The notes under the pieces are model-generated. The model worked only from the letters and a program-made list of their open reading frames with translations. It did no database searches and was not told where the DNA came from. A stretch of DNA of 64,000 bases from a virus. The stretch spans positions 57,868 to 121,867 of IMG/VR virus record IMGVR_UViG_3300028534_000013; one strand, given 5' to 3'. Shown here piece by piece: positions 52,052-60,200 of the stretch. Both the position numbers and the translations under genes were made by a program. Numbering within the stretch: position 1 is the first letter of the stretch; every line of letters starts with the position of its first letter.

Positions 52052-52867
52052 ATGAAAACAAAAATTTTAAAATACGGGAAAAAAATATGTGGAGAAACAA
52101 GAAAAGCCGACTTCCTGAGAGCTTTCGAAAGAGAAGTTGAAACTACTAGAATTTTTAGCTTTGGGGCGTGCAATTTTCACTGCCCGTATTGCAAAAGAGA
52201 TTGTCAGCTTGTAGATACAAACGGCAACCCAATTCGTGCAGAAGAGGTCCCATTTGAAGAGGTGCTAGCTGTGGTTGATGATGCTGTAGCAAAAGAGCAA
52301 AGAGTGAGGTTGTCAGGAGGGGACCCAGTTATGTTTCCAAAAGAGAGCCTTGCCATAGCTAAATATGCTATAGATAAGTATGGGCAAAAAATTAGCATTG
52401 CCCACAATGGTTCAGGTATGAGATATGTTAAATCTCTTGCCCCTTACCTGGACTATGCGGCAATTGACCTTAAGGGGCATGACGGAGAGGAGCTTGCAAT
52501 GAGAGCAGGTATACCTGAAAAGACTGGAGATAAAATGCTGAAAAGCACTCTTGCGGTTCAGGATTACCTTGCATCTCAAGGGGTACTGGTGGACGTAAGA
52601 ACACCAGTGTTCGACACAACCACTCTTGACAATCTACATAGTATGGCAGAACAAATTGTCAAAGGGGGAGTAGAGAATAAGTTCTGGACCCTCAGAAAAT
52701 ATAATCCGGTTCGCTGGATTGACTGGGGGACAATTCCTCAGGAGACTCTGCTCCAATACGCTGAAATTCTCAGCAAGGAGTTCCCAGAGCTTCCTATAGG
52801 GCTTCGCCTAAAATGGAGTGGGGGAGCAAAAGAATTTATAATTTTAAAAGGAGGCAAAAGAATATAG
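52052..52867 (+). CDS. Radical SAM protein (PflA/NrdG-like activase family)
   Basis: CNFHCPYC [4Fe-4S] motif, RLSGGDP, IAHNGS, AIDLKG, DVRTP; GC content visibly higher than the flanks. Confidence 0.9.
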   Translation: MKTKILKYGKKICGETRKADFLRAFEREVETTRIFSFGACNFHCPYCKRDCQLVDTNGNPIRAEEVPFEEVLAVVDDAVAKEQRVRLSGGDPVMFPKESLAIAKYAIDKYGQKISIAHNGSGMRYVKSLAPYLDYAAIDLKGHDGEELAMRAGIPEKTGDKMLKSTLAVQDYLASQGVLVDVRTPVFDTTTLDNLHSMAEQIVKGGVENKFWTLRKYNPVRWIDWGTIPQETLLQYAEILSKEFPELPIGLRLKWSGGAKEFIILKGGKRI

Positions 52868-53199: not shown

Positions 53200-54297
53200 A
53201 TGTATTCCTACAAATTCAGAATATACCCAAAGAAAGAAATAGCAGAGTTGTTAATAAAATGGTTTGGATGTAGTAGATATGTGTGGAATTGGGGATTAGA
53301 CAGAAAAACTCAACACTATAAAGAAACAGGAAAATCCCTCTCATATCTACAATTAGCCAATGAATTAACTCTTTTAAAGAGGGAACAAACTTGGCTAAAA
53401 GAAGCACCATCTCAACCATTGCAACAGGTGCTTAAACAACTTGAAACTGCATTTGCAAAATTTTTTGAAAGGAAGGCTGGGTATCCTAAATTCAAATCCA
53501 AGAAGAACTCAACTCAATCCTTGCAAATTCCTCAGGGATTTAAAATTGAAGAGAATAAATTATATCTTCCAAAATTAAGAAAAGAACCTATAAAAATAAA
53601 ATTACATAGAAAAATCAAAGGCAATATCAAACGCATTGTAGTGTCTATGAATAAGATAGGTCAGTTTTTTGTATCAATTATAACTGACTATACTCCTGAA
53701 AAACTTCCTAAATCTAACAAAAAGATAGGGATAGATTTGGGATTAAAGCATTTTCTAATAACAAGCGACGGTAGAAAAATTCCACTACCTAAATGGTTTA
53801 AAAAAACTGAAATTCTAATTAAGAGAGTTCAAAGAAAGTTATCAAGAAAACAGAAAGGAAGTAAGAGATATGAAAAGGTTAGACAAAGATTAGCTAAACT
53901 TCAATTAAAAGTATCTAATCAAAGATTAGACTTCTTGCACAAACTTTCAAAACAGCTGATAGACGAAAACCAAGTCATAGCTATTGAGAGTTTGTGTATT
54001 AAAGGAATGATTAGAAATCATAAACTAGCTAAATATATTGCAAATGCAAGCTGGGGTAAATTCACTGAACTACTTAAATATAAAGCTAAATGGTATGGTA
54101 GAACTGTAGTGTCAGTAGATAGATTTGCCCCAACTTCAAAAATGTGCAACAAATGTGGATACATCAAACAAGACCTTAAACTCTCTGATAGAGCTTGGAC
54201 CTGCCCAAGATGTGGAACTTTCCACGATAGAGATATTAACGCTGCTCAAAACATTCTTGAGTTAGCGTTAACTACCGCTGGAACAGCGGGAAGTTAG
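53200..54297 (+). CDS. tnpB: TnpB RNA-guided endonuclease
   Basis: N-terminal HTH YKFRIYP...FGCSRYVWN; RuvC triad GIDLG / AIESL / DRDINAA intact; CNKCG...CPRCG Zn ribbon. Confidence 0.95.
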   Translation: MYSYKFRIYPKKEIAELLIKWFGCSRYVWNWGLDRKTQHYKETGKSLSYLQLANELTLLKREQTWLKEAPSQPLQQVLKQLETAFAKFFERKAGYPKFKSKKNSTQSLQIPQGFKIEENKLYLPKLRKEPIKIKLHRKIKGNIKRIVVSMNKIGQFFVSIITDYTPEKLPKSNKKIGIDLGLKHFLITSDGRKIPLPKWFKKTEILIKRVQRKLSRKQKGSKRYEKVRQRLAKLQLKVSNQRLDFLHKLSKQLIDENQVIAIESLCIKGMIRNHKLAKYIANASWGKFTELLKYKAKWYGRTVVSVDRFAPTSKMCNKCGYIKQDLKLSDRAWTCPRCGTFHDRDINAAQNILELALTTAGTAGS

Positions 54298-54471: not shown

Positions 54472-54491
54472 TTTCACGGTATGTATATATG
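54472..54491 (+). promoter_or_regulatory. Phage-type promoter motif TTTCACGGTATGTATATATG
   Basis: Repeat copy. Confidence 0.7.
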
Positions 54492-54541
54492 AGTGAAAGA
54501 GTTTACGGTCTCTAAAATCGTAAAAAATTAAAAGGATTAAA

Positions 54542-55000
54542 ATGTTTGAAGTAATAGCAAATTCTTTAGATTTCACGGTAAATCTTATGGCTTTTACAGC
54601 AGCGGTTGTTTATGGTTTTAAATATTTTAAAGCAAAAAAAGCGAGATTAAGTCTAGCTCAAGATGGGTATGTTTGGGTTGTAATTCAGGTAGGACATCCA
54701 GTGGTGGCGGTTTTCAAAGAACAATTCAAAACCGAACCGGATTACATAATTGACCCTGAAATTGAACTTGGTCATTTAGTTATATCTGGAACAAAAGATT
54801 ATCAAAAGATAATTAAAAGATTCAGGGATATACTAAAAGCCAACCAGGATAAAGAAATCAGGGTCATCACATCTGGGCCTACGGCTTTAAATGCGTTGCT
54901 TGGGCAAGCCGCAGGACCTCAATATGATGTAGTATGGTATCAATGGGATTTGGCTACGAAAAATTATAACCCCATTCCCCCATATGCAGGTTTACTGTAA
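54542..55000 (+). CDS. N-terminal TM plus SAVED/CARF-like single-lobe domain
   Basis: TM LMAFTAAVVYGF; C-terminal EIRVITSGPTALNALLGQ...VVWYQWD...YNP resembles the SAVED C-terminal signature (H-h-F..P..LA..LG...h-Y...Y.P). Confidence 0.5.
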   Translation: MFEVIANSLDFTVNLMAFTAAVVYGFKYFKAKKARLSLAQDGYVWVVIQVGHPVVAVFKEQFKTEPDYIIDPEIELGHLVISGTKDYQKIIKRFRDILKANQDKEIRVITSGPTALNALLGQAAGPQYDVVWYQWDLATKNYNPIPPYAGLL

Positions 55001-55024: not shown

Positions 55025-55099
55025 ATGTTAATAGGTGGAATATGTTTTTTTGGCGGAATGTTTATATTTCTTATGTGGAATTTAACGAGAGAGGTGTAG
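55025..55099 (+). CDS. 24-aa hydrophobic micro-ORF MLIGGICFFGGMFIFLMWNLTREV
   Basis: AATTAAAAGGA RBS module; ends 1 nt before the next ATG. Confidence 0.6.
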   Translation: MLIGGICFFGGMFIFLMWNLTREV

Positions 55100-55100
55100 C

Positions 55101-56051
55101 ATGAAAGTATTTTTAGCAAAAAACCTGAAAGAGGCAATTAGTGTAGCAGAGGAAGAAAAAACAAAAGGAGCTTTCGTTGTGGCTGTTGAAGCAGAGTGGG
55201 GAGATGAAGCGCTGGAATCACCTTACGCAGATATAGCTCTAAACCATCACGGGTCAAGGGCGTCTAACCCGTGTCCAAGCGAAATTGGAATTGTAGCACC
55301 ACAAGTGGTTGAGCTATGTAAAAAACATAAAAACAAAACTTACATAGTAAGCCACATAGACGCCGATACAATATTTGGAATTATGTGGTGCGAGGGGCTG
55401 TTTGACGCTGAAAAAGGATACGCTCCCGATTTAGTTCAAATAGCCAAAATGGTGGCGTTTACAGATAAGAACGGGCGTCACATAGCGATGAGTGAATTAG
55501 AAGCTTTAAACGATACAGATGCTTTTAAAAAGTGGCTCTCACTCGGGTTACTATTTAGCAGAAACGCCATATCATTTAAAGGGGATATATCTGAACATGT
55601 GGCTAAAATAATATATGCCGCATCTCAGATTATATTCTCAAAAAACATCAAAGAGAGCCAAATATACAAAGAGGCTCTCGAATGGGAAGCAGGCAAAGCT
55701 AAAAGCGCAAAAGAGGCAATCACATACAAAGACGATATTTTATTGGGGTTTGCCTCTAAAAAATTTATGTGCGACAATTATGCGTTGTTTGCGGATGAAG
55801 ACGGTATTGTAAGAAAAATAATCATCCAGTATGACTTGCATAATAAATCCATATTATTGGCCGCATATGACGCAAAGACGGCACAGGATTTTTTCGGTAA
55901 AAAAGGAGTAGTAGGGCCACTACAAGATTTTTTTGGAAATGAGGCAGGCGGCCATATCGCTATCGGAGGAAGCCCTAGAAATAAGCCTATGAAATGGCAA
56001 GATTATAAAAAATTTCTCAAATTCATTAAAAGCAAAATTTGGGAAAAATAA
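55101..56051 (+). CDS. Putative circularly permuted DHH-like phosphoesterase
   Basis: LNHHG precedes VSHIDADT (reverse of the usual RecJ/DHH order); later D..G; C-terminal AGGHIAIGGSP resembles the DHHA1 GGGH motif. Confidence 0.55.
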   Translation: MKVFLAKNLKEAISVAEEEKTKGAFVVAVEAEWGDEALESPYADIALNHHGSRASNPCPSEIGIVAPQVVELCKKHKNKTYIVSHIDADTIFGIMWCEGLFDAEKGYAPDLVQIAKMVAFTDKNGRHIAMSELEALNDTDAFKKWLSLGLLFSRNAISFKGDISEHVAKIIYAASQIIFSKNIKESQIYKEALEWEAGKAKSAKEAITYKDDILLGFASKKFMCDNYALFADEDGIVRKIIIQYDLHNKSILLAAYDAKTAQDFFGKKGVVGPLQDFFGNEAGGHIAIGGSPRNKPMKWQDYKKFLKFIKSKIWEK

Positions 56052-56586: not shown

Positions 56587-56922
56587 ATGAAATTTGTAAA
56601 TCTAACGCCACATACAATAAAAATTGTAGCATTAGCTACAGACGGAAAAGAAATAGTAGTAGAACCAAGTGGAACAATTGCAAGAGTTGAAACTATTGAA
56701 AAAGTTATAGCAGAGGTTGACGGAATTCCAATCGTTAAAAGAACTTTTGGTGAAGTTAAAGGAATTCCTGCTCCGGAAGAAGGAGTGGGGTATATTGTCT
56801 CAGCTATGGTATTATCAGCTGTAAAAGGGCGCATAGATGTTTACGCCCCTGACACTGGTAGTACAGCTATCAGAAATGATAAGGGACAGATTGAAGCGGT
56901 GACCAGACTAGTAAGAGCTTAA
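56587..56922 (+). CDS. NLTPH-family protein, candidate Crn4-like ring nuclease/anti-CRISPR
   Basis: VNLTPH.I...PSG.IARV...IP.P.EG..YIVS...R.DV.APDTG..AIR..KGQI; family link recalled, not searched. Confidence 0.55.
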   Translation: MKFVNLTPHTIKIVALATDGKEIVVEPSGTIARVETIEKVIAEVDGIPIVKRTFGEVKGIPAPEEGVGYIVSAMVLSAVKGRIDVYAPDTGSTAIRNDKGQIEAVTRLVRA

Positions 56923-57292: not shown

Positions 57293-60200
57293 CTATTTCT
57301 TTTTCATCCCGTTTGGATATTTTGTCGCATGATAGAATCCTACATAAGGGTCAAGGTCTATTTTCATTTGTAAATTTTCATTGTTTCTGGCACCAAAAAG
57401 CTGTTTTGATGCAAGCATTTTATTTTTCACATCATCAATCGCTTTTTGAGTTAATGGTGCATGAATTGCCAATTGGTCACCGTCATAATCTGCGTTTTGC
57501 GGATTTTCGTGTAACGGGGAAATCCTCATAGCATTATCAGGACTAATCTTTGCGTATGCTCCAATCATGTTATGTTTGTGTAATGTAGGAGCTCTGTTTA
57601 TAACAACAGGTACCTCTTTCATTGTGTCTTCAAGAAATCTTTTTGCTGTATGCGTTCTTTCCTCTAAATGTTTTTGTATATCAGTAGAACTAAGACCGGC
57701 TTGTGACATTTTTCTTGTTACATGCGGTTCGAAAATCTTCCATGCAACTTCTTTAGGCAGCTCTACCTGGTCCATAGGCAAATATTTTTCTTTAGGAATA
57801 ATGACTGCTCTTCCGGATGTAAACACTTTGTTTTGTAATACGTTTTGTTGCCATAAACTTTCTTTAGGTTTTTTGCCAGCTATAATTTCCTGAACAGATT
57901 TAACACCTTTTCTTTTTAATACAGGGTCAGGGGAATCGTTAACTCCATACATTGCTCCTACGTGTTTTTGTAGTTCCGTTTTTAACTTGCCCGTTATAGG
58001 GTGGTTATCGCCAAATTCTTTTTTTGCTTCCTTTAAGGCGTTAGCGGCACTAATTATGGTTGAATAATGATTGTTTATATCGTGGTCAACCACTGTTCCG
58101 TTAGGCAATTTGCTTACCGGCCTATATTTAGTTGGAATTACAGGTATTTTGCTTATAAAAGCTACGTCTTTTAAGTGCATATCATTTTCTTTAAGTTTTT
58201 TTATAGCTTTTACAACTCTCACCCCCTGGTTTATTTTGTTAGGGTCATTTGTTTTTTTAATAGCCTGTTTGTATGTTTTTTCTACAGTGTTAAGATTTAC
58301 TTTGTTTAACTGTTTTTCTATTTCAGAAATTTTTCCTTCTTCTATTTTTTTATCCAATTGTTTTTCCGACATTCCAAGCACTTTGGCTACTATAGGCTTA
58401 TAGTTTGGATTAATTATTTTGTCGCCCAGTTCTATATGTCCATAATAGTTTCCATCACCCCCGAATATTTTAGGGTCATAAAAACCGTGAGGCACTTCGT
58501 TTAAAGTCCCATGTTTTAAACCAAAAGGAGACTTAACCTCACCATTGGACATTTTTTTAATATCTTTATCGGTCATAGGGACTACTTTTATTTTATCTCC
58601 TTCTTCCACTACATTCATATGCATTTGATGTAAAAGAGATTTGAACTTTTTAAGTGATGTTTTTTCTTCGGGCATAGGTAGAATGCTGTCTCCTCTCATA
58701 AAAGCATTGAACCAATCTCTGTTTTTTTGAGACCTTATTTTAAAAGTTTCCCTTAAGAAATCTTTTGCTCCGTGGGCGAGAAGCGCATTGACTTCCATGT
58801 TTGAAATAGAGCTTGCAGAAGTTTTACCGCCTTTTTTAGGCTGGTCCAATCCGTCTGTTGCCCCGTATCCTACTGCGCTCCAAGCACTGTCCCCTTGTTT
58901 AAATAATTTTTGAACATGATAGTTGCCTATAAAAACAGGGTTTTTTAAATAGGTTTTTCTAACTGGGTCATAAACCTTGTGATACAGTTTTACACCATGT
59001 TTTTCGGCCTCTTTTTTTGCAAATTCAGCAAGATTTTCATCCGTAAAATGAGGAATAACATACTGTTTTCCGGTCTTTTCTGAAACAGCTCCCAAGGTAG
59101 CCTCTATAATCTGCGCCGGATTTTGTCTTGATGCTACACCTGCACCGCCCATTATTACATCTATCGGTTTACCGTGTTCATCGTGAGGCATTTCTTTATC
59201 AGGTATAATTTTAGAAATTATCCCTTTATTACCTGAACGTCCGGCAATTTTATCTCCCACTTTTAAAGGAGCTTTGTATGTAAGTATCATTCTCACTTTA
59301 CTTCTGCTGTCGTCTATTTTGTCTAACTTTGTAGGATAATCGTACTTCCATTCTTCCATAAAAGGAGCATATCCTCCATATAACAGTTTTTTTACTTTTT
59401 CATTTGAAAATTTAACTTCATTTTCGTCTAGTTTTTTTACGCCCAAATAAACAGGTTCTCCTTTATGTAAATGGACGCCAGGTTTTAAAAAACCTTTTTC
59501 ATCATATTTGTTCAAATCTATTTTTTTGGCTATATCCGGAAACAGGTTTACAAACTTTTGCTTATTGAATTCTATGTTTTTATCTTTATCAATGTCTTTT
59601 TTGTGATAATGTAAAGATGTCATTTTTTTGGCGGCACTTTCACTAACTACAAAAGCGTCATTTCTTGTCCCGGGATACATCATAAAACCTACTCTTAAGT
59701 TTTTACCTAAAGCATATTGACCGTCTTTTGTATAGTTGCTGTCTGCAAGATGTTGTCCTGCTTTCACTTTATCTCCAACTTTAACGGTTGGGTAATGTTT
59801 GATATATGTTTTAGTGTTAAGAGGGGTTTTGTATGCTGAATAAGGAACCTTGTGTGTTTTTCCATCTTTATCCTTAACGTAAATCATGCCTTCTTTTTTG
59901 TCCATTTTTACAATTGTTCCGTCAACCGGAGCAACAGGGAGATGTTGTTTCGCATACTCAGTAAGAGGAACGTTTCCTTTGCTGTCTCCTATTACAACAT
60001 GTGGCCTATCTCTTTCGGCAAGAGGGAGTGCCTGTAAAATATGTTTTGAGGCCATTAGATTTCTGGTAGGGTCATTGCTGCTTAGCGCTCCCAATGAGTT
60101 CATTGCAGGACCAAACATTAACGATGCATCAGGAATCTGATAATCAGCCTGATGTATTTTGCCTTCAAACAAATTGTTTCCATGTCTTATCCCAACAGTT

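Follow-up and report, generated by a model that had tools for sequence, protein, structure and literature searches.

The stretch of DNA analyzed here (the window; 64,000 nucleotides, positions 57,868 to 121,867 of IMG/VR record IMGVR_UViG_3300028534_000013) carries a phage gene for a protein, P0001, in which a hydrophobic N-terminal helix precedes a single unit related to one half of a SAVED domain. With roughly even chances in our judgement, this half-SAVED protein is a membrane-tethered cyclic oligoadenylate binder or ring nuclease serving phage counter-defence. Profile searches and the predicted fold place it among the SAVED proteins, and a gene context in which ring-nuclease-type neighbours recur favours a counter-defence set, with P0001 as ring nuclease or sponge.

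The half-SAVED gene and the phage that carries it

The gene and the signals in front of it are as follows.
54472..54482, plus strand: motif TTTCACGGTAT, resembling a phage promoter, some 60 nt 5' of the half-SAVED gene
54532..54536, plus strand: AAGGA, ribosome-binding site of the half-SAVED gene as read from the sequence, 5 nt before the ATG
54542..55000, plus strand: half-SAVED gene, an open reading frame encoding P0001 (152 aa)

The record, classified as viral, is 176,653 bp long with a CheckV completeness of 100, and encodes a multisubunit RNA polymerase of phage type as well as a head protease. A sequence-only reading made before this analysis had called the gene phage-borne, and was right in this respect. 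The sequence has an in-frame TAA at 54521-54523, upstream of the ATG, and a start further upstream is therefore ruled out. The motif TTTCRYGGTAT has four exact copies in the window (51360, 51993, 54472 and 56057; chance expectation 0.11), all of them on the plus strand. Each copy precedes a plus-strand accessory gene, one of which is the radical SAM gene described below, and to judge from the sequence the copies probably represent a class of phage promoters. Synonymous changes (60 codons) outnumber non-synonymous ones (18 codons) between the half-SAVED gene and its 88%-identical homologue in locus L005, and we therefore regard the open reading frame as a real gene under purifying selection.

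Homologues of P0001 were recovered with 52-88% identity, a search of cluster representatives gave 24 members, and the Atlas cluster of the family holds about 900 members. Two giant matches from the representative search (2060 and 2939 aa) turned out to be Calx-beta/fn3 surface proteins and were taken as spurious repeat matches. No match was found by tblastn against 50,697 phage records or in PHROGs, and a search for related loci with a narrower family alignment matched one IMG/VR contig and nothing in the GTDB genomes.

One SAVED-type unit behind a hydrophobic helix

Two parts were distinguished in the protein.
54551..54628, plus strand: hydrophobic helix at the N-terminus (about residues 4-29), with the basic KAKKAR behind it
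54668..54997, plus strand: single SAVED/CARF-like unit (residues 43-152), delimited by the structural model and by structural and profile matches

The sequence-only reading had described some 120 residues with a SAVED-like signature at the C-terminus, about half the length of a SAVED domain, and Pfam, NCBIfam, PADLOC and our family profile all bear this out. Pfam PF18145 aligned residues 65-144 with profile positions 100-186 of 190 (E = 3.2e-5), the 24.2 bits being slightly under the cut-off of 26.2, and precomputed PF18145 matches are present on close homologues. The NCBIfam SAVED model aligned positions 148-256 of 261 with residues 43-145, and PADLOC assigned the protein to 'SAVED4--SAVED' (E = 2.8e-9) and 'SAVED4--SAVED_TM' (E = 1.1e-8). 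A profile built from 31 family members and compared with PDB sequences retrieved CalpL (2.9e-11) and AcrIII-2 (4.6e-11, both lobes), and Cap4 was matched too.

The AlphaFold model of P0001 (pLDDT of 89.3) consists of a helix at residues 2-39 and, after it, a single beta-alpha Rossmann-like unit. Foldseek gave AcrIII-2 (9r8s) as the top match with an E value of 2.5e-4, and a probability of 1.00 to AcrIII-2, Cap4, SAVED-CHAT and Cap5. VIA aligned the model with 3TM-SAVED, Cap4, Cap5 and Cap14 at Z scores of 9.7-10.0 (Cap14, 9.8; Cap5, 9.7) and rmsd values of 2.6-3.1 over 97-107 residues, and with CalpL and AcrIII-2 at Z scores of 8.8 and 8.3, respectively. In a wide structure search independent of Foldseek, the eight chains with a Z score of at least 8 were all SAVED proteins, and CARF proteins came next. 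The modelled fold is thus of SAVED/CARF type, and the Rossmann-like core on which the sequence-only reading depended is found by AlphaFold, Foldseek and VIA alike. Only the hydrophobic helix and the single unit are present in P0001, and the earlier statement that it has no effector domain stands. As P0001 comprises one lobe, it does not have the two-lobe architecture, a pseudo-dimer within one chain, that defines SAVED.

Of the single N-terminal TM segment proposed earlier, the helix itself is present and a TM segment is clear in most relatives, but the best 19-residue Kyte-Doolittle mean in P0001 is only 1.41, which is moderately hydrophobic. Most relatives possess one or two clear TM segments with 19-residue values of 1.6-2.7, whereas P0001 and its two closest relatives share a shortened N-terminus (1.41-1.53). 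Membrane tethering is therefore probable, not certain, for the window copy. CalpL offers a caution here, since an earlier prediction had placed it in the membrane and it proved soluble (bioRxiv 10.1101/2021.12.06.471393). The basic KAKKAR after the helix suggests an N-out, C-in topology with the SAVED-like domain in the cytoplasm. The TM region of the relatives bears a conserved W..EP motif and often a Glu or Asn in mid-helix.

Conserved TM segments raise the alternative that the half-SAVED protein is a ligand-gated membrane effector, in which messenger-bound dimers would stack or cluster and the TM helices would perturb the membrane, as in Cap14, 3TM-SAVED or Cam1. Cam1 is a membrane effector composed of a TM helix and a CARF domain. 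Together with the radical SAM enzyme, such an effector would form a self-contained two-gene system, used for defence in cells and for superinfection exclusion, or early lysis once detected, in phages. The family-wide conservation of the TM segments with their W..EP motif and mid-helix Glu or Asn agrees with this alternative, and so does the presence of two membrane effectors, 3TM-SAVED and Cap14 (Z = 9.7-10), among the best structural matches. The window copy itself fits it less well, as its helix is shortened and weakly hydrophobic and a His occupies the catalytic position (see below).

Predicted homodimer and candidate active-site residues

The residues discussed below map to the gene as follows.
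54695..54697, plus strand: codon of His52 in the beta1-alpha1 loop (QVGHP), which aligns beside H128 of AcrIII-2
54872..54913, plus strand: S111-G112-P113 loop and helix 114-124, core of the dimer interface according to prediction and conservation

A dimer prediction, suggested by the sequence-only reading as a check, was run with two copies of residues 38-152 and an alignment of our own. A homodimer was predicted with a score of 0.83 against 0.02 for the best control, a contact agreement of at least 98% and a pLDDT of at least 88. Among solved homo-pairs, 20 of 30 attained the mark applied, as did 1 of 23 single chains; resemblance to SAVED/CARF structures already solved may help the protein to attain it. 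The predicted interface spans residues 110-126 and is centred on helix 114-124 and its surroundings. S111-G112-P113, G121-Q122, Y133-Q134, Y87 and P146 are nearly invariant in the family, and most of the family-invariant residues fall within the predicted interface region. A relative of 290 aa, P0022 (locus L008, 1536-2408), possesses a TM helix and two tandem half-SAVED units, which restore a full SAVED-like protein by natural fusion; upstream of it is a gene with an Nmad3 domain.

For residue mapping onto AcrIII-2, we applied an offset of 7 between the chain numbering of 9r8s and that of the paper. S194 of AcrIII-2 falls opposite S111 in the alignment, and H128 comes next to the position of His52, within a loop. 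In AcrIII-2, the substitution H128A abolishes cA4 cleavage and S194A nearly does so (PMC12751052), and the equivalent His is catalytic in both CalpL and Csx15 (bioRxiv 10.64898/2026.10.26.761840). Among the 32 family members compared, position 52 is occupied by Arg in 20, His in eight, Lys in three and Gln in one, the His being found in the clade of the window copy (the window clade). The non-nuclease sensor Cap4 bears an Arg at the equivalent position, and the Arg at position 52 of most members is accordingly a point in favour of a membrane effector. R96 and K99, which lie on the upper face of AcrIII-2 after a 'Y..IP' motif, have no identifiable counterparts in the window clade. By sequence, R150 of the Arg-type relatives, located four residues after P146, could match R96, but this residue is missing from the window clade, for which R95 and R107 are candidates only, by inference, for a tail-face Arg. 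As position 52 is mostly Arg and R150 is missing from the window clade, the residues do not make up a recognisable complete composite active site. Ring cleavage by the window clade is plausible from its residues.

The fold and dimer predictions also bear on whether P0001 is a decaying, functionless remnant of a host TM-SAVED effector acquired by the phage. A remnant might be expected from what was seen of its size (half a SAVED domain), its Pfam score under the cut-off and its N-terminus, which is shorter than in close relatives. A functionless protein would be hard to reconcile with the strong purifying selection seen in the codon differences, a coherent family with invariant motifs and a large Atlas cluster, the confident fold and dimer predictions, and a promoter-like motif and ribosome-binding site of its own. 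We consider such decay highly improbable.

The radical SAM partner and the gene context of the family

Two genes upstream of the half-SAVED gene are relevant here.
52052..52867, plus strand: radical SAM gene, PFL-activase-like, 271 aa (Pfam Radical_SAM), the usual partner of the family
53200..54297, plus strand: IS605-family TnpB insertion (Pfam OrfB_IS605, Cas12f1-like_TNB and HTH_OrfB_IS605)

In the window, the TnpB insertion separates the radical SAM gene from the half-SAVED gene. The model of the radical SAM protein (pLDDT of 91.9) is nearest in fold to pyruvate formate-lyase activating enzyme (PFL-AE), and no PDB sequence matched the protein at an E value of 0.001 or better. Considering that the gene might be NrdG, NrdD was sought in the phage, and nothing beyond sub-threshold fragments turned up. 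A 56-aa open reading frame located outside the window, in L010 (G000:C1:162864-162968, minus strand), matched the last 31 positions of the NrdD model with 24.9 bits; its product is possibly a small 'spare part' protein of glycyl-radical type, on which an activase-like radical SAM enzyme could act.

Among relatives with 59-62% identity, L001 and L002 have the two genes overlapping, and L003 has them one gene apart in reverse order. A half-SAVED relative with 33% identity is likewise downstream of a radical SAM gene. Within short flanks, L008 and L009 contain the half-SAVED family and no radical SAM gene. A search of viral, metagenome and genome collections with the radical SAM protein alone yielded 93 distinct loci, of which the 64 with at least 600 bp on both sides were regarded as informative. 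The half-SAVED family was found within 1 kb of the radical SAM gene in 21 of these 64 loci. In these 21 the two genes invariably shared a strand, came in both orders and frequently overlapped.

AcrIII-1/DUF1874 genes (8/64) and Crn4-like genes (8/64) were also present near the radical SAM gene in the informative loci. Fusobacterium phage Fnu1 provides one of the radical SAM loci with AcrIII-1/DUF1874, and its copy is listed in the AcrIII-1 paper. Among the remaining neighbours, matches to PADLOC models were obtained for Csx3/Crn3 (five), Csx20, Csx15/20, Csx16 and another SAVED4, the others being heterogeneous. Csx16, Csx20, Crn2, Crn3 and Crn4 are demonstrated ring nucleases (PMC12409355, PMC12830947). 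Altogether, the radical SAM family adjoins members of at least six ring-nuclease families (AcrIII-1/Crn2, Crn4-like, Csx3/Crn3, Csx16, Csx20 and Csx15/20) or the half-SAVED family, and it occurs frequently in CPR genomes, Fusobacterium phages and large phages (the window and L012-L118). A half-SAVED gene and a Crn4-like gene occur together in 5 of the 21 loci, and the half-SAVED protein is therefore not simply interchangeable with a ring nuclease. In the literature searched, no paper connects phage radical SAM enzymes to ring nucleases, to SAVED or to SAM-AMP. In two viral contigs, the gene directly 3' of the radical SAM gene (L020, 4836-5390; L021, 4778-5392) is Cas5c-like and stands alone (PADLOC E = 1.3e-43; Pfam Cas_Cas5d, 7e-17); it may be a CRISPR decoy.

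Five small genomes of CPR-like type (0.9-1.5 Mb) have the Arg-type module on the chromosome, in variable islands made up of small unannotated genes, with the housekeeping genes gyrA, ruvB, tsaE and sod on their flanks. Csm1 over the cut-off was not detected in these five genomes, which may be incomplete. Neither Cas10 nor Csm1 was found near the half-SAVED family on the phage contigs or in the CPR-like islands, and the family thus showed no type III association there. Among the island neighbours in L137-L140 (G001, G002, G004 and G005), one had a weak PRTase-CE match.

The consistency of the pairing suggests another alternative, in which the half-SAVED protein serves the radical SAM enzyme as an accessory or regulatory subunit and has no link to immune messengers; it might, for example, tether the enzyme to the membrane or control it by sensing SAM, 5'-deoxyadenosine or another nucleotide. 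The radical SAM pairing is indeed the most consistent feature of the family, the overlapping reading frames suggest translational coupling, and PFL-AE, to which the fold is nearest, acts on a protein partner. On the other hand, the radical SAM family pairs elsewhere with at least five unrelated ring-nuclease families, which points to cyclic oligoadenylates as the common theme; furthermore, the pocket residues of the half-SAVED protein align with the cA4-handling residues of AcrIII-2, and it contains no glycyl-radical motif. We regard a subunit of this kind as improbable.

The same loci speak on both sides of the membrane-effector alternative. Tight coupling with the radical SAM gene in either order, and modules in variable islands of small genomes in which Csm1 was not detected, count in its favour. 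In two thirds of the loci, however, the radical SAM gene has no half-SAVED gene with it, and its neighbours there are frequently dedicated ring nucleases. A counter-defence cassette accounts for this better than a signal generator paired with an effector. We know of no radical SAM enzyme that synthesizes an immune messenger, which also counts against an effector. The superinfection-triggered effector that the earlier reading offered as its second choice is thus less favoured by gene context, and we retain a ligand-gated membrane effector as the main, albeit less likely, competitor.

Neighbours downstream in the window

Three open reading frames follow the half-SAVED gene.
55025..55099, plus strand: hydrophobic micro-ORF, 24 aa, with a AAAAGGAT-type ribosome-binding site as in the half-SAVED gene
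55101..56051, plus strand: protein of 316 aa with a predicted DHH/DHHA1-like fold, its Atlas structural matches being to clusters of DHH/DHHA1 phosphoesterases (TM of 0.56-0.59)
56587..56922, plus strand: Crn4b-like protein, 111 aa, with an NLTPH motif; matches PDB 9r7b (Crn4b) at an E value of 0.0014 with the motifs aligned

There is no room for the micro-ORF in L005, the locus of the 88%-identical relative, where the gap is 38 nt. Pfam gave no match for the 316-aa protein, and its gene is directly 3' of the half-SAVED gene in L005-L007 as well; it probably belongs to the half-SAVED transcription unit. The Crn4b-like gene comes after a second promoter motif downstream of the DHH/DHHA1-like gene, and its product is, from its sequence match, a candidate phage ring nuclease. 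A homologue is located directly 3' of the radical SAM gene in L017, and in L005 an AcrIII-1-family gene is directly upstream of the half-SAVED gene. The cassette that the window gene shares with the DHH-like and Crn4b-like genes is a further point against a membrane effector.

Proposed role in counter-defence

Among the decoy, sponge, ring nuclease and dominant-negative mimic put forward from the sequence, gene context favours the ring nuclease or the sponge; the function itself is a prediction. We propose that P0001 would be anchored at the inner membrane, with a cytoplasmic part made of one SAVED-type Rossmann-like unit. Two copies would pair via the helix after the Ser-Gly-Pro loop into the shape of a whole SAVED domain, as in Csx15; the homodimer is predicted only. 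The dimer would bind a host cyclic oligoadenylate, most likely cA4 and possibly cA3 or cA6, made by a host type III CRISPR or related signalling system. The pocket with His52 and Ser111 would probably cleave the messenger slowly, or at least sequester it, and the DHH-like and Crn4b-like neighbours could complete its degradation. The same promoter-type motif may drive both the half-SAVED gene and its radical SAM partner as one counter-defence cassette. The gene, the class of its fold, the conservation of the family and the neighbouring genes were observed directly in this analysis; in the scheme, we infer the ligand, catalysis, topology and the roles of the anchor and of the radical SAM enzyme.

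The anchor weighs against this binder or ring nuclease. It has no obvious use in a sponge or a nuclease, yet TM segments are kept in nearly all relatives, and conserved TM segments are a hallmark of membrane effectors. The TM conservation, the CPR-like islands without detected Csm1 and the co-occurrence with Crn4-like genes therefore keep the effector alternative alive. A more tentative idea, which we doubt more than we believe, joins the two genes: their products might be a two-component module in which the radical SAM chemistry destroys, alters or makes an immune nucleotide messenger (a cyclic oligoadenylate or SAM-AMP) and the half-SAVED protein, tethered to the membrane, captures it there. 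If true, the module would be a new anti-type III CRISPR or signalling class common to large phages and CPR bacteria.

To our knowledge, phage counter-measures against type III CRISPR signalling are few, namely AcrIII-1, AcrIII-2, Crn4b-like enzymes and broad phosphodiesterases. A counter-defence binder or ring nuclease would add to them a membrane-tethered family of half-sized SAVED proteins (about 900 in the Atlas cluster), a phage-borne analogue of Csx15. A radical SAM enzyme acting on immune messengers would be new chemistry in the arms race between phages and hosts. The His-type phage clade and the Arg-type majority provide a natural test of what makes a SAVED-type sensor a nuclease.

Comparison with known systems

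Dimerising half-SAVED proteins have already been described, namely the type III CRISPR-associated Csx15 ring nucleases reported in 2026 (PMC13148439; bioRxiv 10.64898/2026.10.26.761840). Neither this precedent nor the radical SAM partnership figured in the sequence-only reading. Like Csx15, of which the homodimer mimics one SAVED monomer, P0001 has a single SAVED-like unit of about 110-130 aa, which homodimerises according to prediction only, and the window clade shares the His just after beta1 on the ligand face. The rare N-terminal TM-helix and tandem fusions of Csx15 parallel the TM helix of the family and P0022. On the other hand, P0001 had no match to the PADLOC Csx15/20 model at E values up to 1, and its nearest sequences are SAVED4 (CalpL and AcrIII-2). 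No Csx15 chain was matched in the PDB sequence and structure searches, for which Csx15 structures may be missing from the database copy. The half-SAVED gene is phage-borne and coupled to a radical SAM gene, whereas Csx15 is reported to be absent from phage genomes (PMC13148439) and is coupled to Cas10. The tail-face C-terminal Arg cluster of Csx15 is not seen in the window clade.

AcrIII-2, the vSAVED of virus TGBSV (9r8s; PMC12751052), resembles P0001 in being virus-encoded, of SAVED4 type and free of an effector domain, but it is a soluble, full two-lobed SAVED protein of about 236 aa, while P0001 is one lobe with a hydrophobic helix. CalpL, a Lon-SAVED protein of the SAVED4 clade (7qda, 9eyi), is the closest solved relative in sequence, superimposes on P0001 with an rmsd of 3.0 over 105 aligned residues, and binds and cleaves cA4 with its SAVED domain. 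Unlike P0001, CalpL is a cellular protease effector of 500 aa with a full SAVED domain, found in type III CRISPR loci.

Cap14 (2TM-SAVED), 3TM-SAVED (9om7, 9wq2/9wq3) and Csx23 (PMC11014256) share with P0001 the order of TM segment or segments and cytoplasmic nucleotide sensor, and Cap14 and 3TM-SAVED are among the highest in structural Z score to P0001. The helix of P0001 and the basic stretch before its sensor correspond to this arrangement, albeit with a weak TM segment. TM-SAVED and Cam1-type proteins serve host defence as effectors encoded in CBASS or type III loci, and their SAVED domain is full or their CARF domain canonical, whereas P0001 is a half unit of a phage with ring-nuclease-type genes around its own, and no messenger synthase (CD-NTase, Cas10 or mCpol) is found beside its gene. 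The kind of protein is already known from Csx15, AcrIII-2 and TM-SAVED; the half-SAVED variant described here is new in being phage-borne, in its hydrophobic N-terminal anchor helix and in its coupling to a radical SAM gene.
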